From NCBI RefSeq assembly GCF_000007985.2, contig NC_002939.5, forward strand, positions 2,580,001 to 2,612,000: a DNA stretch of 32,000 nucleotides, in the 5' to 3' direction. The position numbers were made by a program, and so were the translations under genes. This DNA is from Geobacter sulfurreducens PCA. GTDB lineage: Bacteria > Desulfobacterota > Desulfuromonadia > Geobacterales > Geobacteraceae. Under the pieces are notes generated by a model. That model saw only the letters and a list, made by a program, of their open reading frames with translations, had not been told where the DNA came from and searched no databases. Positions 9,286-31,340 of the stretch are shown in pieces. Every line of letters starts with the position of its first letter. Position 1 is the stretch's first letter.

Positions 9286-11130
9286 ATGAAGCTTGAGTTT
9301 CCCGGAAAATCTGCACGGTGGACCACACCGCTGATCCTCATCAGGGATCTTCATCTGCTGCGCCGGTTCGTCCGAATGCGGCGGGCGGTTTTTTCTCTCC
9401 TCTCCCGGTTTCGGATCAGCGAAAATACGCTCATGGCGATTCTCGCCGTGGGGATCGGCCTGTTGGCGGGACTGTGCAACTACGCCTTCCGCTCGTGCAT
9501 CGACCTGTTCCGGTGGCTCATCATCGACAGCGGCGGGCAGTTGACCGGCTATTCGCCCTATGCCTGGAACGCGAGCCGTCTCTGGGCTATCGCCTTTCCC
9601 ATCACCGGCGCCATCGTCATGTTCCCCCTGTTCATCAAATTCAGGGAAGACATGGCCTTCGGCTTCCCCCGGTTTCTGGAAACGGTCAATCTGCGGGGCG
9701 GGCGACTGCCGCTCAGGCTCATGTTCACCAGGGGGATTTCGTCGGCGCTCACCATCGGCTCCGGCGGCTCCGCCGGCCAGGAAGGCCCCATCGCCCAGAT
9801 CGGCGGCACGGCCGGCTCCGTGGTGGGGCACCTGCTCGGCATGTCGGGAGAGCGTCTCAAGGTCCTCATCGGCTGCGGGGTCTCCGGCGGAGTTGCCGCC
9901 ACCTTCAATGCCCCCCTTGCCGGGGTGTTTTTCGCCCATGAAATCGTCCTTCTCTCCTCCTTCGAGCTCTCTTCCTTCACGAGCATCGTCATCTCGTCCG
10001 GCATGGCCACCGTTGTCTCCCGGGCCATGTATGGCGACATCCCCGCCTTCGACGTGCCCGCCTACCAGCTCGTTCACCCCCTCGAACTTGCCTTCTACGC
10101 CCTGCTCGGGGTGGTGTGCGGCTGCCTCGCGGCCCTCTTCATAACAGGCTACGGGAAAACCAGGGACATGTTCTCGCGCCTCCCTATCAATCCACTGTGG
10201 AAACCTCTTCTGGGCGGGTTTCTCGTCGGCTGCGTCGCGGTTCTTCTGCCCCAGGTCCAGGGCAACGGTTACGAGTTCATCGAAAAAGCCGTTTCCAACG
10301 ACGTGGGGTGGCTCCTTGTCACGCTCCTTATCGTCGGCAAGATGGTCGCCACCTGCGTAACGGTCGGCTCGGGGCTGCCGGGCGGGACCTTTGCGCCGTC
10401 CCTGTTCATCGGTTCGGTCACCGGCATGAGTTTCGGCTTCCTGGCGAACAGCCTCTTCCCGTATCAGACGGCAACGCCGGGCGCCTATGCCCTGGTGGGG
10501 ATGGGCGCGTTCCTCGCATCGGTCACCCACGCGCCCATGACCGGCATCTTCCTGCTCTTCGAGATGACCGGTTCCTACAAGGTCATTGTGCCGATCATGC
10601 TCGCCTGCGCCATCGGCACCGCCGTGGCCCGCCACTTCCACAAAGACGGCATCGATACTGCCGACCTGGCCGCCCAGGGGATCGACCTGCGGGCCGGGCG
10701 AGAACAGAGGGTCCTGGAGCGAATCCGGGTCAAGGGGGTCATGATGCGCGACCCGGAGATACTCCCGGAAACCATGACCATCCGCCAGTTCCTGGCCCGC
10801 AGCCATTCGCCGCGCCAGACCACCTTCCCCGTCGTCACTGGCGGGGGAGAGCTTTCCGGGGTCGTGGTCATCCATGACTTCCTGGGGATCGCGTTCGAGC
10901 AGGAGCTTCTCGACCAGGTCACCTTGGGCGAAATGGCCGCCGTGGACATTTTGACCGTCACCAGCGAAGACACTCTGGCGAAAGCACTCCAGATCTTCGA
11001 GCGCACGCCCCTGGACGAGCTTCCCGTTGTGGAGCCCGGCGGACAAAGGCGGGTGGTCGGCATTCTCACCCGCCACGCCATTACCGGTGCGTACAACAGG
11101 GCAATGGTGACACAATCGCTCAAGGAGTGA
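9286..11130 (+). CDS. ClC-family voltage-gated chloride channel / H+-Cl- antiporter with a C-terminal CBS-domain pair
   Basis: ClC signature segments are present: GSGGSAGQEGP, GCGVSGGVAATFNAPLAGVFFAHE, GLPGGTFAPSLFIG. Two CBS-like modules follow (VKGVMMRDPEILPETMTI..., VDILTVTSEDTLAKALQIFERTPLDELPVVE). The start is uncertain. I chose the ATG at 9286 (GGAG 12 nt upstream); the ATG at 9376 is an alternative. Confidence 0.85.
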   Translation: MKLEFPGKSARWTTPLILIRDLHLLRRFVRMRRAVFSLLSRFRISENTLMAILAVGIGLLAGLCNYAFRSCIDLFRWLIIDSGGQLTGYSPYAWNASRLWAIAFPITGAIVMFPLFIKFREDMAFGFPRFLETVNLRGGRLPLRLMFTRGISSALTIGSGGSAGQEGPIAQIGGTAGSVVGHLLGMSGERLKVLIGCGVSGGVAATFNAPLAGVFFAHEIVLLSSFELSSFTSIVISSGMATVVSRAMYGDIPAFDVPAYQLVHPLELAFYALLGVVCGCLAALFITGYGKTRDMFSRLPINPLWKPLLGGFLVGCVAVLLPQVQGNGYEFIEKAVSNDVGWLLVTLLIVGKMVATCVTVGSGLPGGTFAPSLFIGSVTGMSFGFLANSLFPYQTATPGAYALVGMGAFLASVTHAPMTGIFLLFEMTGSYKVIVPIMLACAIGTAVARHFHKDGIDTADLAAQGIDLRAGREQRVLERIRVKGVMMRDPEILPETMTIRQFLARSHSPRQTTFPVVTGGGELSGVVVIHDFLGIAFEQELLDQVTLGEMAAVDILTVTSEDTLAKALQIFERTPLDELPVVEPGGQRRVVGILTRHAITGAYNRAMVTQSLKE

Positions 11131-11297
11131 ACACGGACCAATCCACAGACATTATCAATGTCTCAACTAATTGTCTCGTTTAGCTGGTACAGGGGGCAAT
11201 GGTGAGGCATTGTGGCTGCCGGCATGGCGCGACGCGGAAACGGGACGCCGCGGCCTGCCGGAGAACGTGTCGGGAAGTGTGGTGATGAAGGAAGGGC

Positions 11298-11684
11298 TCA
11301 CGCCCCTTCCTCTTCGGCACAGGTCGCTGCAGCAGCTTCGCAGCGATGGTAATCGTCATCGAAACGAATGATGTCGTCCTCCCCCAGGTATTCCCCACTC
11401 TGCACCTCGATGATGACGAGGGGTATCTTGCCCGGGTTTTCCAACCGGTGATTGCGACCGATGGGGATAAAGGTGGATTCGTTCACGTTCACCGTGTATT
11501 CATCGTCGCCGCAGGTAACCCGGGCCGTTCCGGAAACCACGATCCAGTGCTCGCTCCGGTGATGGTGCATCTGCAGCGACAGCCGCTGCCCCGGCTTCAC
11601 CTCGATCCGCTTGATCTTGTAGTTCTTGTTCTCCTCGAGAACGGTGTATGTGCCCCAAGGACGTTCGCCGCGCTCCAGTTCCAT
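11298..11684 (-). CDS. Stand-alone cupin resembling the type II phosphomannose isomerase C-terminal domain (128 aa)
   Basis: RPWGTYTVLEENKNYKIKRIEVKPGQRLSLQMHHHRSEHWIVVSGTARV...IPIGRNHRLENPGKIPLVIIEVQSGEYLGEDDIIRFDDDY matches the ManC/PMI cupin pattern. GGAGG lies 9 nt upstream of the ATG at 11682-11684. Confidence 0.8.
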   Translation of the reverse strand: MELERGERPWGTYTVLEENKNYKIKRIEVKPGQRLSLQMHHHRSEHWIVVSGTARVTCGDDEYTVNVNESTFIPIGRNHRLENPGKIPLVIIEVQSGEYLGEDDIIRFDDDYHRCEAAAATCAEEEGA

Positions 11685-11699
11685 CGTCGTGTTCCTCCG

Positions 11700-12542
11700 T
11701 CAGGACAATCCGGCTTCGCGCCGCTTTTCCAAATAGGTGGCAAGTGCCTCGCGCCAGCCTTCCAGTTCGAGCCCCGTGTCCCGGGTCAACTTGTCGCAGC
11801 AGAGAGCCGAATAGAGGGGACGCGGGGCCGGCCGGCCCAGTTGGGCGGTGGTCTGGGGCCGGACGGTCATCTCCACTCCTGCTTCGGCAAAAATGGCGCG
11901 GGCGAAATCGAACCAGGAACAGATCCCCCTGTTGGCCGCATGATAGGTGCCGCGGCAGTTGTTCTCTATCAGTTCGCTGATGGCCAGGGCAAGGTCCACT
12001 GTCCAGGTGGGGGAGCCGATCTGGTCGTCCACCACGGCGATTTCGCTCCGCTCCGTCGACAGGCGCAGCATGGTTTCCACGAAGTTCTTGCCGCCGAGCC
12101 CATAGAGCCACTGGGTCCGGACGATGAGGTGATCGGGGGTTTCACGGGCCTGTTCCTCGCCCATAAGCTTCGATCTGCCGTACACGCTCAGGGGATTGGG
12201 CGGATCATCCTCCAGAAACGGGCTCTCCTTGACGCCGTCGAACACGTAATCGGTGCTCATCTGAACGAGCAGCGCCCCGATCTCGCGGGTCACGGCGGCC
12301 AGGTGCCCCACCCCCTCGCCGTTCACCGCCATGGCAAGGTCCGCGTTGGTCTCGCAGCCGTCCACATCGGTGTAGGCGGCACAGTTCACCACCACCCGCG
12401 GCTTCAGGGTCAGAATGACCCGCCGTACCGATTCCGGCGAGGTAATGTCGATCTCTTCGATATCGACCCCCCGCACGTCCCCCGGCAGCACCCGCATGAG
12501 GTCGCGGCCGAGCATTCCCTTGGCACCGACCACCAGGATCAT
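11700..12542 (-). CDS. rfbD: dTDP-4-dehydrorhamnose reductase
   Basis: MILVVGAKGMLGRDL Rossmann start, then NCAAYTDVDGCE and STDYVFDG motifs typical of RmlD. The start overlaps the rfbB stop by 4 nt (ATGA), which implies translational coupling. Confidence 0.9.
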   Translation of the reverse strand: MILVVGAKGMLGRDLMRVLPGDVRGVDIEEIDITSPESVRRVILTLKPRVVVNCAAYTDVDGCETNADLAMAVNGEGVGHLAAVTREIGALLVQMSTDYVFDGVKESPFLEDDPPNPLSVYGRSKLMGEEQARETPDHLIVRTQWLYGLGGKNFVETMLRLSTERSEIAVVDDQIGSPTWTVDLALAISELIENNCRGTYHAANRGICSWFDFARAIFAEAGVEMTVRPQTTAQLGRPAPRPLYSALCCDKLTRDTGLELEGWREALATYLEKRREAGLS

Positions 12543-18074: not shown

Positions 18075-18869
18075 TCAATTTCCGATCGCTTCGCGCAGCG
18101 CGGAAACGAAGGTTGCGACCTCACGCCCGAGCTCGGCGGCCGTGAAACGCTCGAACAATTTTACAATGGCGCTCCCCACGACCACGCCGTCGGCCGAGGC
18201 GGCCACCTGGGCAGCCTGGTCAGGCGTCGAGATGCCGAAGCCGACCACGACCGGCACGGTGATCGCCTCGCGAATGGCGGCCACGTTGGAGGAAACGGAC
18301 GCCTCCACGCCGCTCCGCGCGCCGGTCACGCCGGTCACCGACACATAGTAGACGAACCCGCGGGCCTGCCGCGCCACTTTCCGGATGCGCCCTTCGTCGG
18401 AGGTGGGGGTGAGAAGGAAGATAACATCGAGCCCGTGGCGGTCGGCACATGCCTTGAACTCGGCCGCCTCCTCCGGGGGAAGGTCAACCAGGAGCACGCC
18501 GTCGACCCCCGCGGCCGAGGCATCCGCCGCAAAGCGCTCAAGGCCGTGGATCAGAATCGGATTGTAGTAGCCCATGAGCACGATGGGCACCTGGCAGCGG
18601 GTACGGACCCGGCGCACCATGTCGAGGATCTTCGGCAGGGTCGTCCCCGCAGCAAGGGCCCGCTCGGAAGAAAGCTGGATGGTGGGGCCGTCGGCCATTG
18701 GATCCGAAAAGGGAACGCCAAGTTCCACGATGTCGGCGCCGCTTTCAGCCAGAAGCGGAATCAGCGCTTCCGTGGCGGCCAGGTCCGGGTCACCGGCGGT
18801 GATGAAGGTAACGAGGGCCTTGCGGCTGTTGTGCTTCAATTCGGCAAATGTGCCGGCAATTCTGCTCAT
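18075..18869 (-). CDS. trpA: Tryptophan synthase alpha chain
   Basis: The motifs [37 protein letters not shown] and GFGISTP are classical TrpA signatures. Confidence 0.93.
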
Positions 18870-18941
18870 GGGAAACCTTTCGGAATGGTTGCCGGACCGG
18901 GTTTCCAGGTATCGTGCCGATCCCCGGTCCCCGGTCCCGGG

Positions 18942-21125
18942 TTACCGATTCTCCACCTTGAAACTGCTCATACCCCGCTCAAGGGCTTCCAACTGGCGGG
19001 ACAGCCGTGAAACCGCATCGTCCATCATCCGGGCCGAGCCGAGATTGGTCGAGGTCGACTCCTGGATGTCCTCCACGGCGCGGATGATCTGATCGCTGCC
19101 CCGCGACTGCTCGTCGCAGGCCCGCTTGATCTGCTGAATCATGTCGGTGATGTTCTCGGTGGAACGGGCGATGAACGCACCCACCTTGCTCTGCTCCCGG
19201 GTTGAGGTCCTGACCTGGGAGGTAAGCCCTTTCATCCGCTCCGCGGCGGCCATGATCATGTCGCTCCCCTTGCCCTGCTCCCGGGTGGCGCCGGCCACCT
19301 GGGCGATCATGTCCGAAACCCGCTCCATGGCGCTACGGATCATCTGGCTTCCCTTGGCCTGCTCCATGGTGGCCCGGGCAATGCTCTCCACCTGGGCCGT
19401 GGCTCCCTGGACGCCGGTAACGATCTTGGCCAGGGCTTCGCCCGACTTCTGGGACAGGGCCTCGCCGTCGGCGATGCTCTTCTCGGCCAGCTCGATAGCC
19501 TCCACGGCCCGGGCGGTTTCATCCTGGACCCCTTTGATCAGCTGGGCGATCTCGCGAGTGGAGCTGGTGGTCCGCTCGGCCAGCTCCTTGATCTCGTCGG
19601 CCACCACGGCGAAACCCTTGCCGTGTTCGCCCGCCTGGGCCGCAATGATGGCGGCGTTCAGGGCCAGCAGGTTGGTCTGCTCGGCCACTTCGTCGATGAC
19701 CGACAGAATCGCGCCGATGTCGGTGGCCCGGACGGAAAGGGTTTCGATCACTTCCGAGGTGATCCGGGAAGAGCGTTTGATCTCGTTGATACCGGCGATG
19801 GTCGCTTCGACGGAGACCTTGCCCATCTCCGCGTCCCGCCGCACCCCCTCTGAAATGGATGCGGTCTCCATGGCATTCTTCTCGACCTGCCTGATCGAGC
19901 TATCCATCTCGGCCACGGAAGAGGCAGTGGTGGTGGTCACATCCTGGAGGCTCACGACGCTGTTGGCGATCTGCTTGATGGACGCGGCCATCTCCATCAC
20001 CGAGGAGCTTACCTCATCAACGGCCTGGGCCAGTGAGTCCACGTTCACGGCCACCTCTTCGATGCTGGCGGCCATCTCGAGGATCGACGACGAGGTTTCC
20101 GAGGCGGAAAGGGAAAGGCCGTCGACGCCGCGGGAGACCTCCTTGATGGAAGTATTGATCTCGGCAACGGCCGACGAGGTCAGGGACACTCCCTCGGCCT
20201 GGACTTCCGCCGCGGCCATGACCCGGCGCGAAGCCTCGAAGATGTTGGCGGAGACCTGCCCCACCTCCACCAGGGAGCGGTTCACCTTGCGGACCAGCTC
20301 TCCCAGCATTTCCAGCATGATGTTGAAATCCCGGCCGAGCAGCGACAGCTCGTCCGTGGCATCGGTGGTCACCCGGACGGTCAGATCCCCTTCCGCTCCC
20401 TTGTTCAGCGCCGTCACCATCATGTTCACCCGCCGGATGATGTTGCGGGTGGCCACGACGCCGAAAACGAAGGCCAGCACGGCAGCCCCGATGATGACAA
20501 TGACGAAGGTAATGCTGACCGAGGCCCGGATCTGGCGCGTTTCCTGCCCCACCACCTGCATCAGCCCCTTGACCGTCTCGATGAGGTCGTCGATGTCGCG
20601 GGCCACGAATTCGCTTGCCCCGGACAACTCGGAGATAAGCCTGGTCTCGACGAGCACCGAAGGAGACACCGAACCGCTCAGGACCCCGGACTTGTAGGCA
20701 ATGATCCTGTCCGCCACCTTTTCATACTCGGCCCAGGTGTCGAGGAGCGCCTTGGCATGCTCTTCCATGACGGTATCGACGGAGTCCGGCCGGATGCCCA
20801 GGGCCGGATCGCCCTTGAGCAGCGCGTTGCTGTAGCGTCTGAAGATGTCGCGGTTCTTGCGATAGGACTCCACGTTCGCGGCCAGGATCCTGGTATCCAC
20901 GTGCCCCATCATCGCCTCCAGCAGGGCGACGCGGCTGGTGCGCTCGGCGGCCTGGAGCTGCAACGCCAGCTTCTGCTGATCCGCGCGGGTCTGCATGAGA
21001 TCCGACACCCTGTTTCCAACCATCCCGATGGAACGGATGCCGATGAAGCCGGTGACAGCAACGATGGCGGCCATGATGGCAAAGGAGCCTATGAGCCGGT
21101 AACCGAGTTTCATATCCTTGAACAT
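18942..21125 (-). CDS. Methyl-accepting chemotaxis protein: two TM segments, ~170-aa periplasmic helical sensor, HAMP, and a very long signalling domain
   Basis: The conserved hairpin tip [38 protein letters not shown] is present. TM1 is [20 protein letters not shown] and TM2 is [26 protein letters not shown]-like segment follows TM2. I chose the ATG at 21123-21125 (MFKDMKLGY); the track start at 21236 adds a non-membrane extension. Confidence 0.9.
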
Positions 21126-21247
21126 GGCGGAGAACTCCGGAGGAACACGTAGAGGTGATGGGTTCTGATATAGCAGAGGGGTGTCCGCATTATCAAGTGA
21201 AAAGGAGGCCCAAGCCGGTGCGGAATCACGCGGCAAGAGGCGTACAA

Positions 21248-21751
21248 TCAGCGTCTGAGGCCGTTGATGACTTCTGTGAATCCTTTAAGAATCTCTGCGG
21301 GGCGGTACCGCTGCGGCACGGAAAACGTGCCCGTCGAACTTACCGGCACCAGTGTGAGGCCCAGGGGGGTCTCCACTTCAAGCGACCCGGTCAGCCGATA
21401 GGGGATCGCGGCCGGGTCCGGATGCCGCTTGAGAATCTCCATGACGGAGCGGAAGGGGACGCGGAAAGGAAGGCGCACATCGGTGGTGGCGCCGCCGGGG
21501 AATTCGATGCGCCGGCGGTCTCCCCCCGTGGTCAGGGGGAGAGCCAGCACTTGAAGATCATAGCTGTACCCGGTCAGCGACAGGGCAAAGGAGTTCTCGT
21601 TTGTCACACCGAGAAGCAGCTCGATGTCCACCCCGTCCGCCCCGAAGCCGGTCACGGCCACATCCTTGACCGCGACCCGTGGTTCGGAGAGGAACAGAGA
21701 GCAGCCCGAAAGAAAGAGCAGTATGAATGCGGCGAATAATACCTGTTTCAC
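21248..21751 (-). CDS. LEA14-like / WHy (LEA_2) domain lipoprotein
   Basis: Lipoprotein signal with lipobox (FILLFLSGC). The pattern [41 protein letters not shown]...G fits the LEA_2 beta-sandwich consensus as I recall it. Confidence 0.65.
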
Positions 21752-21768
21752 GGGAGAATGATTCCTGG

Positions 21769-22416
21769 TTACGAAGCCTGCTCCACTTCGATGCGGAGCT
21801 CCTGGGCCCGCACCGGAAGCGACGGCTCCAGTTCACGGAGGATCTCTCTCCGGTAGCGGCGCCGCTTGATCTCGTAGGCATCGGCTTCGGGGCCGACGCC
21901 ACAGTAAAGTTTCTTGGCACGGACAAGGTCGCCGTTTGCCATGTCGAGCTTGCTGTAGAGCTCCCGCACGGCGGCTTCGGCGCACTTCTCGTCGTCCTGC
22001 ATCTCCTCGGGCCGGTAACCGTGGCTGGCGGCGCGGTACGGCATCAACTGCCACACGCCGAGCGCCCCTTTGGGCGAGACTGCCTTGGCATTGAATCCGA
22101 GGGAACCGGTTTCCGAGAGGGCTATTTCCGCCAGGTCGAGCGGCATGAGGTCGGTGCCGAGGGTTTTCAGGTAGCAGAGGGCTGCGAGCTTGTGGGCGCG
22201 CTCAGGGGTCGTCCTCTTGGCGAAGACGACGGCGATGGCTCGGGCCTGGCGCTGTCGTTCATCGTACTCGACGCCCTGCTGCATGAGCCTGCGGACCTCC
22301 AGATCGGTCGCGGCGTCGAACTGTGCCGTCGGACCGGCTTCCTTGCGAAGTCCGCTCTGGTTGCAGGAGACGCTGAAAAGCATCGTTCCTGCCAATACTA
22401 GTATCATCTTTTTCAT
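21769..22416 (-). CDS. Lytic transglycosylase (SLT domain) lipoprotein
   Basis: Signal peptide with lipobox (MLFSVSC). SLT catalytic region ALSETGSLGFNAKAVSPKGALGVWQLMPYRAASHGY (ES...GA.G.WQLMP pattern). No clear SD. Confidence 0.75.
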   Translation of the reverse strand: MKKMILVLAGTMLFSVSCNQSGLRKEAGPTAQFDAATDLEVRRLMQQGVEYDERQRQARAIAVVFAKRTTPERAHKLAALCYLKTLGTDLMPLDLAEIALSETGSLGFNAKAVSPKGALGVWQLMPYRAASHGYRPEEMQDDEKCAEAAVRELYSKLDMANGDLVRAKKLYCGVGPEADAYEIKRRRYRREILRELEPSLPVRAQELRIEVEQAS

Positions 22417-22622
22417 AGTGGTTTTTTGGTCGGGGTACGCAGCTTTGCCGGACGGTCCGAAGTACGGACGGTGATCAATGGGAACGGCTCCGGCTGAAAC
22501 CTCCTTTCAGTAAATTTCGGCCGCGCCCCGGACAGCGGGCGGGACCAGACGGGGGCGGCAGCGGGCCGCCCGATGGCTATGGACAGGTTGCTTAATGAAT
22601 GAAGGCCGTTGCAGAAACGGCA

Positions 22623-22645
22623 AAAGGACCCGTGTGGGGTCCTTT
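22623..22645 (-). terminator. Intrinsic terminator about 140 nt downstream of trpB (also usable on the plus strand)
   Basis: The minus strand reads AAAGGACCC-cacac-GGGTCCTTT then TGCC. The core is a 6-bp GC stem (GGACCC/GGGTCC) with a U-tract UUUUG. Confidence 0.6.
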
Positions 22646-22678
22646 CCCTGTGCCTGTTCTATTTTACAGGCGACGTCA

Positions 22679-22708
22679 GTTATAAGTTAAAACAGTTCGT
22701 CTTGTCAA
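22679..22708 (-). promoter_or_regulatory. Candidate strong sigma70 promoter in the AT-rich spacer downstream of trpB
   Basis: The minus strand reads aaaaaagc-TTGACA-(18 nt)-TATAAC. TTGACA is at 22703-22708 and TATAAC at 22679-22684. An A-tract lies upstream of the -35 element. Confidence 0.4.
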
Positions 22709-22786
22709 GCTTTTTTCTAAGATTCACCTCTACTTTCAACATGTTACACTGCATTTTCAGCGAGTTCGCCCCCGGATATCGAGCAC

Positions 22787-23977
22787 CTAAAAACGTACCC
22801 CCATGGCATCGGCCACGGTATGAATATCCTTGTCCCCCCGGCCCGAAAGACAGACCACGATGGTCTGCTCCTTCGGCAGCGTCGGTGCCAGCTTCACCAC
22901 GTGGGCGATGGCGTGGGACGACTCCAGGGCCGGCATGATCCCCTCCTCGCGGGTCAGGAGCGTGAAGGCGTCCAGGGCTTCCTCATCCGTGACCGACACG
23001 TACTCGGCCCGGCCCGCATCCTTGAGCCAGGCATGCTCCGGGCCGACCCCGGGGTAGTCAAGTCCGGCGGATACGGAGTGGGCATTGGCGATCTGGCCGA
23101 ACTCGTCCTGGAGTAGATAGGTCTTGTTGCCGTGGAGGACCCCGACGCTCCCGGCACACAGGGGCGCCGCGTGGGCGCCGGAGGCGATGCCGTGGCCCGC
23201 CGCCTCCACCCCCACCATCCGCACTTCCCGGTCATCGAGGAAGGGGTAGAAGAGCCCCAGGGCGTTGCTGCCGCCGCCGACGCAGGCCACCAGCACATCC
23301 GGCAGCCGCCCCTCGATCTTCCTGTGCTGGGCCTTGGCCTCACGGCCGATGACCGTCTGGAAGTCGCGCACCATGGCCGGATAGGGGTGGGGCCCCGCCA
23401 CGGTGCCGATCACGTAGAAGGTGTTGTGGATGTAGGTCACCCAGTTGCGCAGGGCCTCGTTCATGGCGTCCTTGAGGGTGGCGGTCCCGGCGGTCACCGG
23501 CGTGACCGTGGCCCCCAGGAGCTTCATCCGGAAGACGTTCAGAGCCTGGCGCCGGATATCCTCCTCTCCCATGAAGACTTCGCACTCCATGCCGAAAAGG
23601 GCCGCGATGGTGGCGGTGGCCACCCCGTGCTGCCCCGCGCCGGTCTCCGCAATGACCCGCTTCTTCCCCATCCGCTTGGCCAGAAGCCCCTGGCCGATGG
23701 TGTTGTTCACCTTGTGGGCTCCGGTGTGGTTCAGGTCCTCGCGCTTGAGGTAAATCTTCGCGCCCCCGAGCTTTTGCGTGAGCTTTTCGGCGAAATAGAG
23801 CGGATTGGGCCGCCCCACGTACTGGCGGAGGTAGTAGTCGAACTCCTCCTTGAACTCGCGGTCGTGCCGGTAGTGGTTGTAGGCCTGCTCCAGCTCCAAC
23901 AGGGCCGGCATGAGGGTTTCCGGCACGTAGCGGCCGCCGAACTGGCCGAAATGGCCCTGTTTGTCGGGTAATTTCAT
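22787..23977 (-). CDS. trpB: Tryptophan synthase beta chain (canonical TrpB1 type)
   Basis: [33 protein letters not shown] (PLP lysine), [12 protein letters not shown] and GGGSNALG motifs. I chose the ATG at 23975-23977 (MKLPDKQ) with GGAGGA upstream. The track start at 24073 adds 32 unsupported residues. Confidence 0.95.
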
Positions 23978-24069
23978 ATATCCTCCAGTGTTTGTATTCG
24001 TGTATTGGTCACGGTGGCTGATACCCAGAAACCGAGGCCGACCATTCTCGCACATCAGGGCAAGCCCCA

Positions 24070-24498
24070 TCAAGGGGCAGTGATCACCGTAAACCGGTCG
24101 TCAAGGATATCCGCCAGGAGCGGCCGCACATCCTGCCACGCCAGACCGCCACCGCCGCAGCCGGGACGGGGGACAATGACGCGGGTCCACCCTTCCCGGT
24201 CGGCAAGCGCCCGCAGCTCCTCGGCGGAGCGCCGGATGAGGCGCAGGTCCGGATTTGCCCAAGGGCTTTCCTCCACGGGAAAGCTGACAAGGCCCTCGCC
24301 GATGACGTGGACATGGTTTCCCCCTTCGGACAGCACTGCACCGAGCCGGGCCGGCAGATCAGGGAACCGCTCCCGGGCCTGCCGGGCGCAGCCGCGCCCC
24401 AGAACGGCCTCCCCCTTCTTTGTCAGGTGGCCGTTGGTGGTGATGCAGATGATTGCGGTACCGAGGTGGTCCCAGATGTTGCCGGGTGTTTCGTTCAT
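24070..24498 (-). CDS. Small macro-domain-like protein (putative ADP-ribose binding/hydrolase fold), 142 aa
   Basis: The pattern [31 protein letters not shown]...FPVEESPW...[22 protein letters not shown] resembles short phage/bacterial macro domains (TNG..G.AVMG.G.A ... P..G.G.GGL.W). The composition is host-like (45/60 G+C in line 24121). There is no obvious SD. The call rests on motif memory only. Confidence 0.55.
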
Positions 24499-24700
24499 TG
24501 GGGGTGCCTGTGCTGCGATAATGATATGTGGTCAGTATCGGGTGAAATTGGTCTTTGTAGTCCCGCTCATTTCTTTCACAAGGCTGATGACTTCAGATTT
24601 TTCGGTTTAACGCTGCTGGGGGATTGGCCGTAATTTGATGCAAGCCCATAGTGTTTTATCCAAAATGGGCCCAGAATATATCAAACGGCTAACGGACCAG

Positions 24701-24735
24701 CCTGAACAAGCGGAGCGAACCACCGTTTGTTCAGG
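24701..24735 (-). terminator. Hairpin downstream of the ATPase gene (possible weak terminator)
   Basis: CCTGAACAA (24701-24709) and TTGTTCAGG (24727-24735) form a 9-bp perfect stem with a 17-nt loop, 19 nt after the ATPase stop. A CGGA/TCCG extension with a 4-nt bulge is possible. There is no clear U-tract, so terminator function is uncertain. Confidence 0.35.
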
Positions 24736-24753
24736 TCCGCGTTGAAGGACTGA

Positions 24754-26328
24754 TTAGAGCCTCTTGGCATAAAACGGGGAAAGTTCAAGGATTGCACGTC
24801 TTATTGATCGGAAATCAGTATACGGAACATCCACGAAGCCTGATTTACCCTCTACGTCTACCTCAAACAGCCCTTGTGGCGCCCGAGATGTGTTAATCAA
24901 ATCGACGTAGCAACCATAGTCAAGTGCGTAAACGTTAAAACGCCGCCCCGGAATATCTTGAGCTGAAACACCTTGCCGAATGATGTGAAGAACACGCGCA
25001 TCGTAAAGAAAATCAACCAAATCGTCTTTGACCTCTGAGCCGAGAAGAAAAGCTCTTGCCTGCCGATGTTGAATAACTTCATCAACAATCCAATTCAACA
25101 GATCTTGCGCAAGTGGTTTAGTGCTAACGGCTTGCTGTTTTGCCCTAGTGTACCACGTTCTAGCAGCGGCTCGTACATCGGGAACTGATATGGCGTGGTC
25201 AAGCGCCTTCTGTGCGGCCACACCAATGATATTGATAGCATCCCGAGGAACACCTTCTGCGGATCGGACAAACTCCTCGAATGCTGGTCGTTGCGTGAAC
25301 AAGTCGTTGATAAATTCAGAAGCAGATTCTTTTACTTCCATCTCTTTGGTTGCTGAAACAAGCGCTTTGACATGCCGATGTAAAAGCTCCCGAAAGAATT
25401 GTTTCGCTAAGTCTGGGTTGTTGTCAAAGACAAGGAATTCGTCTAAATTGATACTCGCAGCTGCATCAGCCCCAATCTCAATACCAATATGCCCCACTGC
25501 CTCATCCGGAATCCGAAATCGGCAACGTTGCTCTATCGCCGCAATCTTAACTGTTACGCCGCGTACTGGAAGTACCGTGCGACGAAGCAGATCGGCCAAG
25601 TACGGCTGAAGATCGAGAGGAATTTCACTCCATTCGTCGAAGACAATCCATAGCTGAGACTGCGGCAGAGCAGTTACAAGTTTCTCAAACTCACGACCAA
25701 CTGCACCAAAGCGAACTCGCAAACATTCCGTACCTTCCCTCTTCGTTCGCCGTTCTTCCGCAGCTTGATTCTTATTCTCTATCGTGAAATCCAATGAACT
25801 TTGAAGCCCATTCGCTGATGCACCTATATTACCCTTAATGCCGTCCGCCGATGTGCTAGTTGCCGATTTTGATTCCTGGACTTCTACCGTCCCCTCGACT
25901 ACGACATTCGTAGCAGCATCAATAAAGTTGTCGAGCAAAGGTCCGAGTGCGGACAGGTCATACTCCTCAGCTTTTTCAAGTCCCTCTGTTAATATGCGGT
26001 CATGTATTGCGCACAGCGTATCAACTAGAAGTCGTGTCGCTCGCTCAGGGAGAGTTAGCCGCGGATCTGAGTAGATTCCGCCGGTTGACCCAATAGTGCG
26101 CATGTCAAGCTGAATAGCAATAACGCCATCTCTCTGGACCTCATTTGCCAAGTATCCAAGAACATGAGTTTTCCCTGTGCCTCGTCTGCCGAAAAGTATT
26201 TGGTTGTCGGGGTTCGAAAGGAGTGTAAAGAGCGGCCCAACATCAACAAAGGAGTTGATGATGTGTTGTTGGTTGTAGGTTTCGGCACGCTTGGCTAGCC
26301 TGAGCAAGATCGTATTGATTGGGCGCAT
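24754..26328 (-). CDS. ORC/Cdc6-like AAA+ ATPase with a C-terminal winged-helix-like region (524 aa). Orphan, function unknown.
   Basis: - Walker A: GRRGTGKT, nt 26167-26190.
- Walker B: LWIVFDEW, nt 25630-25653.
- Sensor-2-like: EGVPRDAINIIGVAA, compare Cdc6 GD.R.AI.LL.
- C-terminal segment: LVDFLYDARVLHIIRQGVSAQDIPGRRFNVYALDYGCYVDL, wHTH-like.
- Start: AGGAGG lies 8 nt from the second ATG (26326-26328) but only 2 nt from the first (26332-26334), so MRPIN is the likely start.
- Codon usage is AT-rich, unlike the neighbouring genes. Confidence 0.8.
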   Translation of the reverse strand: MRPINTILLRLAKRAETYNQQHIINSFVDVGPLFTLLSNPDNQILFGRRGTGKTHVLGYLANEVQRDGVIAIQLDMRTIGSTGGIYSDPRLTLPERATRLLVDTLCAIHDRILTEGLEKAEEYDLSALGPLLDNFIDAATNVVVEGTVEVQESKSATSTSADGIKGNIGASANGLQSSLDFTIENKNQAAEERRTKREGTECLRVRFGAVGREFEKLVTALPQSQLWIVFDEWSEIPLDLQPYLADLLRRTVLPVRGVTVKIAAIEQRCRFRIPDEAVGHIGIEIGADAAASINLDEFLVFDNNPDLAKQFFRELLHRHVKALVSATKEMEVKESASEFINDLFTQRPAFEEFVRSAEGVPRDAINIIGVAAQKALDHAISVPDVRAAARTWYTRAKQQAVSTKPLAQDLLNWIVDEVIQHRQARAFLLGSEVKDDLVDFLYDARVLHIIRQGVSAQDIPGRRFNVYALDYGCYVDLINTSRAPQGLFEVDVEGKSGFVDVPYTDFRSIRRAILELSPFYAKRL

Positions 26329-26623
26329 GCACATCTCCTCCTTAATTCTGGCACTCTAACGTTCAAAGTAACCGGCCTGTGCGGCTTTCGCACAAGTCCG
26401 ATTGGCTGCCGATTTATGCCCTACCGTCGCCTTTATTGGATAAATTGGGGGACACACCAGTTTCCCCGGGCCGAACGCACCGACGGCGTTACCTTGGGTG
26501 ACCGCGTCAGCTTGAATCCGAACCCGATATTCCGCCCGTCTTGCCGGATCAACAGAGTCCAGCTCCGCGGCGGCATGCACACCTGCATGTGCGCGTCATC
26601 GCGTCGGGCACAGATTCGGCATG

Positions 26624-26660
26624 CCATGAAAATTCGGAATGACAAATCTGATTTTCATGG
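26624..26660. promoter_or_regulatory. Perfect 10-bp AT-rich inverted repeat with a 17-nt spacer, upstream of the ATPase gene (candidate operator or RNA hairpin)
   Basis: CCATGAAAAT (26624-26633), tcggaatgacaaatctg, ATTTTCATGG (26651-26660). On the minus strand a possible promoter, TTGTAT-17 nt-TACCAT, ends inside the left arm. A near-direct repeat, GATTCGGCATG / AATTCGGAATG, overlaps the element. Confidence 0.45.
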
Positions 26661-26682
26661 TACCCAGCGAACAGTGATCATA

Positions 26683-26710
26683 CAAGAAAAGGGGATGGAA
26701 ATTCTCCCCT
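26683..26710 (-). terminator. Intrinsic terminator after trpF, closing the trpEGDC-B2-F transcription unit (also terminator-like on the plus strand)
   Basis: The minus strand reads AGGGGA-gaatttcca-TCCCCT followed by TTTCTTG. On the plus strand the alternative pairing AAAGGGG...CCCCTTT is followed by GTTGTTTTT. It lies about 120 nt downstream of the trpF stop. Confidence 0.55.
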
Positions 26711-26770
26711 CCCCTTTGTTGTTTTTATAAAAGTTCCCACTGCTCACCCCCCTGCTCGCGGTGCTCGCTT

Positions 26771-26791
26771 CCCCCCTACAGGGTAGGGGGG
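26771..26791. repeat. GC-rich perfect hairpin/palindrome just downstream of trpF
   Basis: CCCCCCTAC-agg-GTAGGGGGG is a 9-bp stem with a 3-nt loop, 36 nt after the trpF stop. No U-tract on either strand. Confidence 0.5.
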
Positions 26792-26826
26792 ACTGAGAGG
26801 GGTACTTCCATGGTCTGCCTCCGGTC

Positions 26827-27438
26827 TCACCACCCCTTGGCCCGCCGGATGAACTCCCGCACCCTGGCTGCGTCCTTCCGGCCGGGCGCGCTTTCCACGC
26901 CGCCCGAGACGTCCACGGCATAGGGCTTCACCGTTTCCACCGCTTCCCGCACGTTGTCGGGGGTGAGTCCCCCGGCGAGGATGAGCGGGCCGAACGCCTT
27001 TGCCGCAGCTGCGATGTCCCAGTTGAAGGTAAGGCCGGTGCCGCCGTAGGCCTTGGGGGAGTAGGCGTCCAGCAGGTGGGCCGCCACGCGGTAGTGCCGG
27101 ATCGGGTCGAGGCTGCTGATGTCCTTCACCCTGAAGGCCTTGATCACCCGGCGCTCCACGGCGTCGCAGAACTCGGGCGGCTCGTCGCCGTGGAGCTGGA
27201 CCAGATCGAGGCGGCAGCGGGTGGCCGTGTCGTTGACGAATGCCGGGGGACGGTTCACGAAAAGCCCCACGGTCTGGATAAACGGCGGGAGCCCGGCGAT
27301 GATGCCGGCGGCCTGTTCGGGCGTCACGTGGCGGGGCGATTCGTCGTGAAAGACGAAGCCGAGGGCGTCGGCCCCGGCCTCCACCGCCACGAGGGCATCC
27401 TCAAGGGATGTTATGCCGCAGATCTTGACGCGGACCAT
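26827..27438 (-). CDS. trpF: Phosphoribosylanthranilate isomerase
   Basis: MVRVKICGITSLEDALVAVEAGADALGFVF, VQLHGDE and the C-terminal AGGL..NV and VDVSSGVE-like (VDVSGGVESAPGRKD) motifs are typical of TrpF. The start lies 4 nt after the trpB2 stop. Confidence 0.9.
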   Translation of the reverse strand: MVRVKICGITSLEDALVAVEAGADALGFVFHDESPRHVTPEQAAGIIAGLPPFIQTVGLFVNRPPAFVNDTATRCRLDLVQLHGDEPPEFCDAVERRVIKAFRVKDISSLDPIRHYRVAAHLLDAYSPKAYGGTGLTFNWDIAAAAKAFGPLILAGGLTPDNVREAVETVKPYAVDVSGGVESAPGRKDAARVREFIRRAKGW

Positions 27439-27442
27439 CCGT

Positions 27443-28798
27443 TCACAGTTCCACCTTGGGCAGTTTGGCCAGGGACTCCCGGATCATCTCCTCGGGGTAT
27501 TCGACGTCTTCCAGGCCGCCGGAGAGGTAGGCGTCGTAGGCCACCATGTCCAGCTGGCCGTGGCCCGAGAGGCAGAAGAGAATGGTCTTTTCCTTCCCCT
27601 CCTCCTTGGCGATGACTGCTTCGTCAATGGCGGCCCGCACCGCGTGGGACGATTCGGGGGCCGGCACGATCCCCTCGTGCCGGGCAAAGAGGTGGGCTGC
27701 CTCGAAACAGGCGGTCTGGCGGTACGACTTGGCCTCGATGAGGCCGGCATGGTGGAGTTGCGACACCAGGGGCGACTCGCCGTGGTAGCGCAGCCCGCCG
27801 GCGTGGATACCGGGCGGCATGAAGTCGTGCCCCAGGGTGTACATCATGGCGATGGGGGCCATCTTGGCGGTGTCGCCGTAGTCGAAGGCGTAGATCCCCT
27901 TGGTCAGGGTCGGGCACGAGGCGGGTTCCACGGCCAGACAGCGGACGTTCTTGCCGGCGGCCCGGTCGGCCAGGAACGGGAAGGCCGTGCCGGCGAAGTT
28001 GGAGCCGCCGCCGCAGCAGGCGATGACCACGTCGGGGTAGTCGCCGGCCAGGGCCAGCTGTTCCCTGGCCTCCTGGCCGATGATGGTCTGGTGGAGGCAG
28101 ACGTGGTTCAGAACGCTGCCCAGGGCATAGTTGGTGTCGGCGCGGGAGGCGGCATCCTCAACCGCCTCGGAGATGGCGATGCCGAGGCTGCCGTTGCTGT
28201 CCGGATCGTGGGCCAGGATGGAGCGCCCGGCGTTGGTGAACTCGGACGGCGACGGGATCACGTTGGCCCCCCAGAGCTGCATCATGCTTTTGCGGTACGG
28301 CTTCTGGGTGCACGACACCTTGACCATGTAGACCGTGCACTCCAGGCCGAACATGGAGCAGGCCAGGGCCAGGGAACTCCCCCACTGCCCGGCGCCGGTC
28401 TCGGTGGCCAGCCGCCGGATGCCCGCCTGCTTGTTGTAGTACGCCTGGGGGATGGCGGAGTTGGGCTTGTGTGAGCCGGCCGGGGACACCCCTTCGTATT
28501 TGTAGTAGATCTTCGCCGGGGTGCCGAGGGCCTGCTCCAGCCGGTGGGCACGGTAGAGGGGAGACGGCCGCCAGAGGCGGTAGATCTCCCGCACCTCTTC
28601 CGGGATCGGAATCCACCGTTCGCCCGAAATCTCCTGCTCGATGATGGCCATGGGGAAGATGGGGAGAAGGTCGTCGGGGGTCACCGGCTGAAGGGTGCGG
28701 GGGTTGATGACCGGCGCCAGGGGGCCGGGCATGTCGGGGATGATGTTGTACCAGTGGGTCGGGATGCGGCTTTCGTCCAGCACTATTTTAGTTTGCAT
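27443..28798 (-). CDS. trpB2: TrpB2-type (long, 451 aa) tryptophan synthase beta-like PLP enzyme
   Basis: [13 protein letters not shown]...[39 protein letters not shown]...[12 protein letters not shown]...[10 protein letters not shown]. The N-terminal extension and the SHKPN lysine motif distinguish TrpB2 from TrpB1. AGGAGA SD upstream of the ATG at 28796-28798. Confidence 0.9.
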
Positions 28799-28845: not shown

Positions 28846-29646
28846 CTATCCCAGCAACTCCCGCAGTTTTGCCCCGATATCCTCTTCCCGCATGAGGGAC
28901 TCGCCGATGAGGAAGCCGTGGGCGCCGGCAGCCTGGAGGCGGAGGATGTCGTCACGGGTATTGATGCCGCTCTCGGTCACCACGAACCGGTCGGCGGGGA
29001 TCATGGGGATGAGCCGCTCGGTGGTGCCCAGGTCGGTGACGAAGGTGCGGAGGTTGCGGTTGTTGATCCCGATCAGGGTGCAGCTCGACGCAAGGGCCGT
29101 CTCCAGCTCCTGCTCGTCGTGGACCTCCAGCAGCACGTCGAGGTACTGCTCCCGGGCAAACCCGGCCAGATCCTCGATCTGCGCCGGTTCCAGCATGGCC
29201 GCGATGAGGAGGATGGCGTCGGCCCCGGCGGCGCGAGCCTCGTAGACCTGATAGGGGTCGAAGAGGAAATCCTTGCGCAGCAGCGGCAGCCGCACCTGTT
29301 CCCGGATCAGGGCCAGGTAGCGGAGGTTGCCCAGGAAGAACTGCTCGTCGGTCAGGACAGAGAGGCAGGCGGCGCCGTTCTGCTCGTAGGTCTCGGCAAT
29401 CTCCAGGGGATCGAAATCGGGGCGGATGACCCCCTTGGAGGGGGACCCTTTCTTCACCTCGGCGATGACGGCGGTCCAGCCGGAGGCGTGGCAGTCCCGC
29501 AGGGCCCGCTCGAAGCCCCGGGGCTGGTCCTCCAGATCCGCGATGCGGGCCTTCACCTCGGCAAGGGGGGCAGCGGACCGGGCCGCAGCCACTTCGCCCC
29601 GCTTGTGCTCGACGATCTTCTTCAGGATATCGGGGGTATCGGTCAT
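28846..29646 (-). CDS. trpC: Indole-3-glycerol-phosphate synthase
   Basis: [65 protein letters not shown] and ESGI motifs. Confidence 0.93.
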
Positions 29647-29650
29647 GGGT

Positions 29651-30703
29651 TTACTCGTTGGTCAGGGTGATGAGTTCTTCCAGCTTTGCCAGGGCACGGC
29701 CCGAATCGATGGCCTCGGCGGCGATGCGAACCCCTTCAGCCGGGTCAACGGCCTTGCCGGCGGCCACCAGGCCGAAAGCGGCATTCAGGAGTACCACGTC
29801 GCGGCGCGGCCCGGTTGCCCCTTCAAGGATGCCGCGGACGATGCGGGCATTGCCGGCCGCGTCGCCACCGCGGAGCTCCCCGGCGGGGCAGGAGGCAAAC
29901 CCGAATTCTTCCGGCGTGATGGTCCGCACCGACACCCCGTCCCGGGTCACCTCGGCGATGCGGGTCTCGCGGGTGAGGGTGATCTCGTCCATGCCGTCCA
30001 TGCCGTGGACCACGAAGCCCCGGCGGCAGCCCAGCTTGTGGAGGACCCGGGCCAGGGGCTCCACCAGCTCCTCCCGGTAGACGCCCAGCACCTGGCAGTC
30101 GGCGCCGGCGGGGTTGGTGAGGGGGCCGAGGATATTGAAGATGGTCCGGATGCCGATCTCCTTGCGGGGGCCGATGGCGTGCTTCATGGCGCCGTGCAGG
30201 GCCGGGGCGAAGAGGAAGCCGATGCCGATCTTCGCAATGGCCTGCTCCACGGTCTCCGGGGTCACGTCCAGGTTGACGCCCAGGGATTCCAGCACGTCGG
30301 CGCTGCCGCAGGCCGACGACACGGCCCGGTTGCCGTGTTTGGCCACCTTGACCCCGCAGGACGCCACCACGAAGGAGACGGTGGTGGAGATGTTGAAGGT
30401 GTTGGTGCCGTCCCCGCCGGTGCCCACCACGTCCAGGATCGTTTCCTGGTCGATGTTGATGTCGTCCCGGTCGATATCGAGGACTCCCTTGCCGACCCGG
30501 ATGGGGGTTGCCCGGTCCCGCATCACCCGCGCCGCGCCGGTGATCTCCTCCACCGTCTCACCCTTCATCCGCAGGGCGGTGATAAAGGCCGCGATCTGGG
30601 CCGGGGTCGCCCCGCCGGACATGATCTGGTCCATCACCTCGATCATTTCCGCTTCCGTGAGGTCGATGCGCTCAACCACCTTGGCGATTGCTTTTTTGAT
30701 CAT
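29651..30703 (-). CDS. trpD: Anthranilate phosphoribosyltransferase
   Basis: [47 protein letters not shown] and LGPLTNPA motifs. The track start at 30712 is a GTG. I chose the ATG at 30701-30703 (MIKKAIAK); either is possible. Confidence 0.93.
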
Positions 30704-30715
30704 CAGGTTCACCTG

Positions 30716-30770
30716 TAGGGGCGATCCTTGTGATCGCCCTGTTTCCGGGCGAATACAAGATTCGCCCCTA
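30716..30770. repeat. Composite palindrome (twin mirror hairpins) filling the trpG-trpD intergenic spacer
   Basis: On the plus strand the element contains:
- hairpin 1, GGGCGATC-cttgt-GATCGCCC at 30719-30739
- hairpin 2, GGGCGAAT-acaag-ATTCGCCC at 30747-30767
The two loops are reverse complements of each other. The outer arms TAGGGGCGA / TCGCCCCTA are also complementary, so one long hairpin is an alternative fold. The trpG stop codon (TAG, 30768-30770) lies in the outer arm. Confidence 0.6.
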
Positions 30771-31340
30771 CGACCGTGTTATCTCCAGGAAATTACGCAG
30801 AAGATCCATCCCCCCCTCGGTGAGGATCGACTCGGGGTGGAACTGGACCCCCCAGACCGGCAGCTCCCGGTGGGCAAGCCCCATGATCTCCCCCTCCTCT
30901 ACCCAGGCGGTGATCTCCAGGCAGTCCGGAAGGCTGGCCCGCTCCACCACCAGGGAGTGGTAGCGGGTGGCGTTGAAGGGGTTGGGCAGCCCCCGGAACA
31001 GCCCCTGGCCGTTGTGATGGATGGGCGATGTCTTGCCGTGCATGAGGGTGGAGCTGCGGACCACCGTGCCGCCGAAGGCCGCGCCGATGGACTGGTGGCC
31101 AAGGCAGACGCCGAGGATTGGAATCTTCCCGGCAAAATGCCGGATGGCGGCCACGGAGATTCCCGCCTCCTCGGGCGAGCAGGGTCCGGGAGAGATGACC
31201 AGGCGCCGGGGCGCCAGGGCCTCGATCTCATCCAGGGTAATGCCGTCGTTGCGGAAGACCCGCACATCCTCGCCCAGCTCGCCGAAATACTGGACGATAT
31301 TGAAGGTGAAGGAATCATAATTGTCAATCATCAGGAGCAT
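30768..31340 (-). CDS. trpG: Anthranilate synthase component II (glutamine amidotransferase)
   Basis: [31 protein letters not shown] (catalytic Cys) and GVQFHPES motifs. The start lies 1 nt after the trpE stop. Confidence 0.93.

Follow-up and report, generated by a model that had tools for sequence, protein, structure and literature searches.

ATPases of the ORC/Cdc6 type are AAA+ proteins, and their architecture is also used by the BREX and RADAR ATPases. In the tryptophan genes of Geobacter, non-conserved genes are known to separate trpB1 and trpA from the operon in G. sulfurreducens and G. metallireducens (Aklujkar et al. 2009, PMC2700814), and hotspots of variable content bracketed by core genes have been described as core defence hotspots in Pseudomonas aeruginosa (PMC10250203). 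Here, we report that an AT-rich block between trpF and the macro-trpB1 genes of Geobacter sulfurreducens PCA, which carries one ORC/Cdc6-like AAA+ ATPase gene, is very probably a horizontally acquired single-gene islet in a slot that has been subject to recurrent replacement. The window, i.e., the whole stretch of DNA that was analysed, is 32,000 nt long (NC_002939.5, positions 2,580,001 to 2,612,000), and coordinates refer to it unless a locus of a relative is named. The event is real, correctly located and of an ordinary kind, its broad fact having been noted in 2009; what is new here are the junctions, a terminator that predates the insert, a relic of an earlier gene, a survey of the hotspot, and the characterization of the cargo family.

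Relatives were compared through 80 loci anchored on TrpF, with the window proteins mapped onto each; 40 of these loci are from Geobacteraceae. The closest are L001 (G. hydrogenophilus), L002, L003 and L004, with TrpF identities of 86-89%, followed by L005 with 82%. The slot, its flanks and the elements within it are the following.

22787-23977, minus strand: trpB1 (tryptophan synthase beta; Pfam PALP), the downstream core flank of the slot
24070-24498, minus strand: macro-domain protein of 142 amino acids
24513-26464, minus strand: lineage-specific AT-rich segment, very probably acquired, 1952 bp, G+C 0.483, without counterpart in L001, L004 and L005
24687-24735, minus strand: pair of hairpins immediately behind the ATPase stop codon, of which 24701-24735 has a 13-bp stem and 24687-24702 is terminator-like
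24754-26328, minus strand: ORC/Cdc6-like AAA+ ATPase of 524 amino acids (Pfam PF24389), with a spacer of ~0.5 kb to trpF
26465-26678, minus strand: relic of an earlier DUF4143/AAA_14-type ATPase gene (3' end), frameshifted and truncated, G+C 0.565
26679-26717, minus strand: intrinsic-terminator-like hairpin with a U-tract, GGGGAGGGGAGAAUUUCCAUCCCC then UUUUCUU
26718-26826, minus strand: trpF 3' flank, with ~80 nt particular to this genome (columns absent from the L001-L005 alignment)
26827-27438, minus strand: trpF (PRA isomerase; Pfam PRAI 2.5e-48; 82-89% identity to L001-L005), closing the trpE-G-D-C-B2-F block and forming the core flank upstream of the slot

The composition of the segment sets it apart from everything around it. 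In 500-nt windows, G+C lies between 0.46 and 0.53 across 24501-26750 against a window-wide mean of 0.633 (standard deviation 0.033); the mean of the insert is 0.484 (z = -4.5), and the minimum elsewhere in the window is 0.54. The ATPase gene has a G+C content at third codon positions (GC3) of 0.44 as compared with 0.74-0.90 in 13 neighbouring genes, and an index similar to the codon adaptation index (CAI), with the window pool as reference, gives 0.27 for the ATPase and 0.56-0.79 for the same neighbours. The original prediction had inferred a foreign composition from G+C counts per line of sequence and had noted AT-ending codons in the ATPase; both are borne out by the sliding G+C, GC3 and CAI-like analyses, and the counts themselves were reproduced exactly (25, 26, 26, 31 and 25 inside, 45 and 42 outside). 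The gene order and the common strand are confirmed as well, although the strand is the minus strand, and so is the separation of trpE-G-D-C-B2-F from trpB1 by this segment.

Alignment of the trpF-trpB interval across related loci agrees with the earlier expectation that the nearest relatives do not have the segment, and tblastn gave no match to the ATPase in any of the trpF-anchored loci (0/80). L001, L004 and L005 keep trpF, the terminator and macro-trpB1 with other DNA between them. On the macro side, homology to these three loci restarts at CACAGG, ~15 nt upstream of the macro start codon (~24513), and on the trpF side homology to L001 stops at ~26461-26464. Outside the ATPase open reading frame (ORF), the foreign block comprises only 130 bp upstream and 241 bp downstream. 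The AT-rich insert proposed for the whole interval between trpF and the macro gene is real, but its lineage-specific part is confined to 24513-26464; the remainder, 26465-26717, is an older relic and terminator that the window has in common with G. hydrogenophilus (85% identity to L001 10640-10893). In L001, the counterpart of the relic is a 100-codon ORF (10713-11015) encoding a DUF4143/AAA_14-like product end, with a match to the tail of Pfam DUF4143 at E 1e-3 (below cut-off) and to PADLOC PDC-S01 at E 3.5e-4. The relic marks an earlier occupant of the slot, and the breakpoint at ~26464, which cuts a gene that runs on in L001, shows that a replacement took place in the G. sulfurreducens lineage.

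The hairpin at 26679-26717 adds an older layer to this history. As RNA, it folds into a G+C-rich stem of 8+4 bp followed by UUUUCUU; the consensus terminator scan missed it because its outer loop is 9 nt. The 39-nt element is found in all five of L001-L005, ~35 nt after trpF and with 84-88% identity, regardless of the cargo that follows. A terminator hairpin after trpF had been predicted and it exists, but its supposed arrival with the insert did not hold: since it is kept in L001-L005, where the ATPase is lacking, it is older than the ATPase insert, and therefore trpB1 would have been uncoupled from trpF already before the acquisition. In this clade, the element is likely where the trpE-F transcription unit natively ends. 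Between the hairpin and trpF, the stretch 26718-26800 holds a perfect 9-bp hairpin (CCCCCCTAC/GTAGGGGGG), i.e., CCCCCCUAC-CCU-GUAGGGGGG at 26771-26791, with a single occurrence in the window; the ~80 nt after trpF may represent a small genomic repeat.

The junction that harbours the block is variable throughout the family. The gap between trpF and trpB is <100 bp in 25 of the 40 Geobacteraceae loci and in outgroups, and the adjoining of the two genes is the ancestral state. The other 15 loci are occupied, with at least eight unrelated kinds of cargo. The original prediction regarded accessory cargo inside a core operon as unusual, which is hard to maintain with 15/40 loci occupied and the split of the cluster noted in 2009 (PMC2700814). 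The cargo found at this junction includes the following.

L004, terminator-macro interval: Mrr type IV restriction enzyme
L001, terminator-macro interval, 11172-12130: two small ORFs of 138 and 154 amino acids, 38-39% G+C
L005, terminator-macro interval: 192 bp only
L002, after the terminator: a small ORF and an IS630-like transposase
L003, after the terminator: PAS histidine kinase
L015, L019-L021, L023, L029, L034 and L044, between trpF and trpB: PMT_2 and GT2 glycosyltransferases, epimerase, methyltransferase

The two small ORFs of L001 (138 and 154 amino acids) have no Pfam, NCBIfam or PADLOC match. Conserved flanks, differing cargo in close relatives and empty sites elsewhere, i.e., the marks of a variable hotspot flanked by core genes, were all found here. 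Each cargo gene seen in this slot, in trpB2|trpF and in trpB1|trpA is co-oriented with the trp genes. The cargo of defence type consists of Mrr, a HEPN-MNT pair and the PDC-S01-like relic, and that of non-defence type of the glycosyltransferases, the PAS kinase and a DUF3617 gene. The HEPN-MNT (NTase_sub_bind + NTP_transf_2) toxin-antitoxin pair sits at the trpB2|trpF junction in L013 (3123-3895) and L026 (9054-9826), and the DUF3617 gene at the same junction in L039 (8059-9006); both cargos have a G+C content below that of their flanks. In L008 and L037, there is no trpB within 10 kb after trpF, the place being taken by a serA-like dehydrogenase (L008) or a phosphotransacetylase (L037), which suggests that the cluster is rearranged more deeply there.

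The ATPase family behaves in a similarly scattered fashion outside Geobacter. Its distribution is patchy and extends over many phyla, between which it moves as a solitary gene. There are 3097 homologues across Proteobacteria and Firmicutes; the best 120 of the 3097 are 53-87% identical and all have one precomputed Pfam label in common. Their sources are Gamma- and Betaproteobacteria, Desulfobulbia-like bacteria, Paenibacillus, Dehalobacter and a large number of metagenomes, with the nearest ones (87% identity) located on unrelated metagenome contigs in other contexts. The gene is solitary, without a conserved partner, in all eight loci where the flanks could be read (one on a plasmid, the others in seven chromosomal contexts); a ninth locus is a 1.9-kb contig with the gene alone. 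The homologues are found in toxin-antitoxin and restriction surroundings, with AIPR, ParE/Phd, HEPN-MNT, Mrr, HicB and MqsA among their neighbours. Their contexts range from the inside of a Paenibacillus prophage with two integrases and a prophage-like edge in P. aeruginosa to insertion sequence (IS) elements on a Burkholderia glumae plasmid and plain housekeeping genes in Methylovulum. Homologues occur on 23 plasmids and on 31 IMG/VR contigs, on the latter mostly at most ~2 kb from the contig end and, in L109, directly after an endolysin gene; PHROGs gave marginal matches only. In 8/8 comparable hosts, the gene is AT-richer than its flanks. Nucleotide homology between the window and the other loci ends at the boundaries of the ATPase ORF, and no mobile-element ends are shared. 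This patchy, mobile distribution argues against a role of the family in replication of the host chromosome.

Translation of the ATPase would begin at ATG 26328, 8 nt after the ribosome-binding site AAGGAGG at 26337-26343; a longer reading from 26334 is less likely. Against Pfam PF24389 (ORC-CDC6-like), the protein scores 45 bits (cut-off 27, E 8.4e-12), with only residues 15-68 aligned. In an alignment of 70 sequences, Walker A (G47-RRGTGKT54), Walker B (D231-E232) and a GVPRD motif are invariant, and all invariant residues are present in the ATPase; GVPRD occupies the position of the sensor-2 'GDAR' motif of Cdc6. The ratio of nonsynonymous to synonymous substitution rates (dN/dS) against the nearest homologue is 0.08, from which it follows that the gene is functional and under purifying selection. 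AlphaFold2 with the 70-sequence alignment returned a model with a mean predicted local distance difference test score (pLDDT) of 80 and a predicted TM-score of 0.75, compared with a pLDDT of only 35 from the single sequence. The model consists of an AAA+ base, a lid and a winged-helix-like C-terminal domain. Residues 142-203 form a two-stranded β-hairpin arm of ~60 residues in the AAA+ domain, and in this arm the family is least conserved (pLDDT 53-63). Foldseek matched the model at E 3e-5 to 1e-3 to SSO1545, human ORC1/4/5 and Cdc6, archaeal Orc1-DNA, RuvBL and the RADAR ATPase RdrA; the matches 2v1u (archaeal Orc1-DNA), 7jpq, 5uj7, 8s0e (human ORC/Cdc6) and 2fna have a Foldseek probability of 1.0 (E 3e-5 to 3e-4) with TM-scores of only 0.3-0.5. 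The predicted model thereby has what defines the ORC/Cdc6 clade, namely the AAA+ base, lid, winged helix and structural similarity. Sequence searches of solved structures found nothing for the ATPase, and in a fold search of BFVD the only matches were generic ones to clamp loaders and RFC. Downstream of the gene, the two hairpins at 24687-24735 may serve as a terminator for the ATPase transcript or stabilise it; taken as a whole, the spacer between the ATPase and macro shows no significant fold (z = -1.3).

The gene beyond this spacer raises the question of how much came in together. It encodes a stand-alone DarG/TARG1-like macro domain ('ADP-ribose-binding protein'), with matches to PADLOC DarG (6e-9), NCBIfam DarG (7e-8, below cut-off) and PDB 5m3i (3e-3). 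The two genes are adjacent and co-oriented and the macro protein resembles the macro domain of the DarG antitoxin, as would be expected if they were a two-gene module, i.e., a DarTG-like toxin-antitoxin or ADP-ribosylation-based defence pair, that was inserted as one. The macro gene, however, is host-like in composition (GC3 0.78 vs 0.44 for the ATPase), is found at this site (85-89% identity) in L001, L004 and L005, which lack the ATPase, and is conserved at 64-91% identity across Geobacter, Geomonas and Geomesophilobacter; it adjoins trpB1 only in the G. sulfurreducens clade and lies among unrelated genes in Geomonas agri (L101). In none of the eight homologue loci whose flanks could be read does a macro gene adjoin the ATPase, and there is no DarT-like gene. 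For its host-like composition, its retention where the ATPase is lacking, its conservation in Geobacteraceae and its location elsewhere in Geomonas agri, the macro gene counts as an older occupant of the slot outside the insert, and we reject the joint module as largely refuted and extremely improbable. An old resident of the trp cluster whose odd composition came from function or selection, and which was lost in the relatives, is also very improbable. All inspected G. sulfurreducens assemblies carry the segment in the same layout, and since the family is AT-rich in every host compared, its composition may be intrinsic to the gene. Yet the ATPase is missing even from the four loci with 86-89% identical TrpF, trpF and trpB are contiguous in most Geobacteraceae loci and in outgroups, the ~26464 breakpoint interrupts the relic gene, and the nearest homologues stand in unrelated metagenome contexts; with neither host-like composition nor presence in relatives, this reading was rejected.

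Homologues at prophage ends and beside integrases, the IS630-like transposase of L002 in the same slot and the IS elements around the Burkholderia plasmid copy would all fit the decay to one gene of a larger mobile element, be it a prophage, an integrative island or an IS-bounded composite. Against this, the Pfam domains of the window include no integrase or transposase, the window has no tRNA or tmRNA genes, and the repeat search over 24000-27500 gave only short, low-identity pairs at chance level, with no direct or inverted terminal repeats or att target bracketing the insert. The original prediction had reported the same lack of integrase, transposase, tRNA target and terminal repeats. The foreign block leaves hardly any room beyond the ORF, where homology to other loci also stops, and we rejected the decayed element as quite unlikely. 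Wiring of the insert into tryptophan metabolism, either by trp read-through expressing the cargo or by a cargo promoter driving macro-trpB1, is unlikely too. The uniform co-orientation of cargo in trpF|trpB1, trpB2|trpF and trpB1|trpA favours it, and so does the upstream region of macro, where nothing is conserved beyond ~15 nt, so that macro-trpB1 transcription must either begin in the cargo or run through it; but a conserved terminator hairpin stands between trpF and the cargo, two further hairpins follow the ATPase stop, and co-orientation may merely reflect selection against head-on or antisense transcription. Rfam has no family at gathering score in the whole window, and no leader or riboswitch even at E <= 1 in 23900-27000. 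A coupling of the cargo to tryptophan status had also been proposed originally; it finds no support, as the family occurs in unrelated contexts and never beside trp genes in the other loci examined.

We consider that the single-gene islet was acquired recently in the G. sulfurreducens lineage, probably after its split from G. hydrogenophilus, and that the gene entered a gap that was already there, between the conserved trpE-F terminator on the upstream side and macro-trpB1 on the downstream side. Turnover of the slot probably proceeds by recombination in the conserved flanks together with illegitimate joins and not by a site-specific element. The ATPase would have a ribosome-binding site of its own and probably also a separate promoter. 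Beyond ~15 nt upstream of macro, no sequence is conserved among relatives; with no conserved promoter there, macro-trpB1 would presumably be transcribed from within, or through, whatever cargo is present, which may in turn account for the uniform co-orientation of the cargo.

As to function, we tentatively suggest, at somewhat less than an even chance, that the ATPase has a role in conflicts with phages or other mobile DNA, given the neighbourhoods of its homologues, the fact that prophages and plasmids carry them, and its ORC/Cdc6-type architecture; the protein would bind nucleic acid via its winged helix and oligomerise on ATP. A broader scenario is rather unlikely: solitary PF24389 ATPases would be single-gene anti-phage or abortive-infection systems spread by prophages and plasmids, and at the same time the trp gaps would be true defence/accessory hotspots with an obligatory co-orientation that passes transcription on to trpB1. 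If true, the turnover of immunity genes and the expression of tryptophan synthase would be mechanically linked.

Several points weigh against our interpretation of the islet and of its role. PADLOC v2 gives the ATPase no match, NCBIfam DS41_1_antiphage reaches only 28 bits (cut-off 370) and the Sll1717 family 34 bits (cut-off 75), and no effector domain is evident in the protein. The INPHARED phage genomes are without an ATPase homologue, and the ends of IMG/VR contigs may include host flanks. Several of the slot cargos, such as the glycosyltransferases and the kinase, are not defence genes, which makes this a general variable slot and not strictly a defence hotspot. A sigma-70 scan found no site above chance upstream of the ATPase or of macro. 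Please note as well that five of five G. sulfurreducens copies are identical base by base, most copies probably stemming from one laboratory lineage, so that this identity does not amount to fixation in the species.

The identical ATPase protein is present on 121 public contigs, and every copy that was read has the same layout. The layout also agrees with PMC2700814 for GSU2379 (trpB2), GSU2375 (trpB1) and GSU2371 (trpA). In the literature, we found no mention of GSU2376, GSU2377, GSU2378 or Sll1717 and no paper on the ATPase family. The remaining genes around the slot are the following.

30768-31340, minus strand: trpG
29651-30712, minus strand: trpD
28846-29646, minus strand: trpC
27443-28798, minus strand: trpB2
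21769-22416, minus strand: SLT transglycosylase
21248-21751, minus strand: LEA_2 lipoprotein
18942-21125, minus strand: chemoreceptor of 727 amino acids
18075-18869, minus strand: trpA

For trpB1, ATG 23977 (396 amino acids) is favoured over TTG 24073, which opens the longest frame and overlaps the macro stop codon; public assemblies annotate the gene at this locus with 396 amino acids, the alignment with relatives starts at residue 33 of the long reading frame, and the shorter reading leaves a 93-nt spacer after macro. From these alignments, ATG 23977 is most likely the true start. trpB1 and trpA (18075-22786) are likewise apart, with the SLT transglycosylase, the LEA_2 lipoprotein and the chemoreceptor between them, all co-oriented; L001 and L004 have this intervening block too, and deeper relatives also keep the SLT gene. 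After trpB1 comes a spacer of 370 bp, in which G+C dips to 0.55.

What emerges is a layered history, i.e., terminator, relic and newer ATPase, in a small hotspot among clustered amino-acid biosynthesis genes of a model electroactive bacterium. It flags a widespread family of solitary ORC/Cdc6-like ATPases as candidate conflict genes. It also implies that trpB1 expression may depend on DNA that differs between close relatives, which matters for engineering or deleting this region.

Among known systems, the window ATPase resembles the ORC/Cdc6 clade (archaeal Orc1/Cdc6 and ORC1/4/5, as well as BrxC/BrxD and RdrA) in its Walker motifs, its GVPRD motif and the lid and winged helix of the model, but it carries the ~60-residue β-hairpin arm in the AAA+ domain, has no solved-structure match at the sequence level, and lies outside any replication-origin context. 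It differs from the BREX and RADAR ATPases in being solitary, with no BREX or RADAR partner genes. As for DarTG, the macro domain is closest to those of DarG and TARG1, but the window protein is a macro domain only, of 142 amino acids, and stand-alone across Geobacteraceae; it scores 32 bits against the DarG equivalog cut-off of 250 and has no DarT-like neighbour. The arrangement of the interrupted trp cluster is the same as that described in PMC2700814, a paper without composition analysis, junctions, cargo identity or a survey of relatives. Compared with the core-gene-flanked hotspots of P. aeruginosa (PMC10250203), the trp slot is tiny, with one or two genes inside a biosynthetic cluster, and it also takes up non-defence cargo (glycosyltransferases, a kinase, IS), all of it co-oriented; like them, it has core genes bracketing content that varies between close relatives, includes recognised defence genes in its cargo, and needs no mobility genes at the site.

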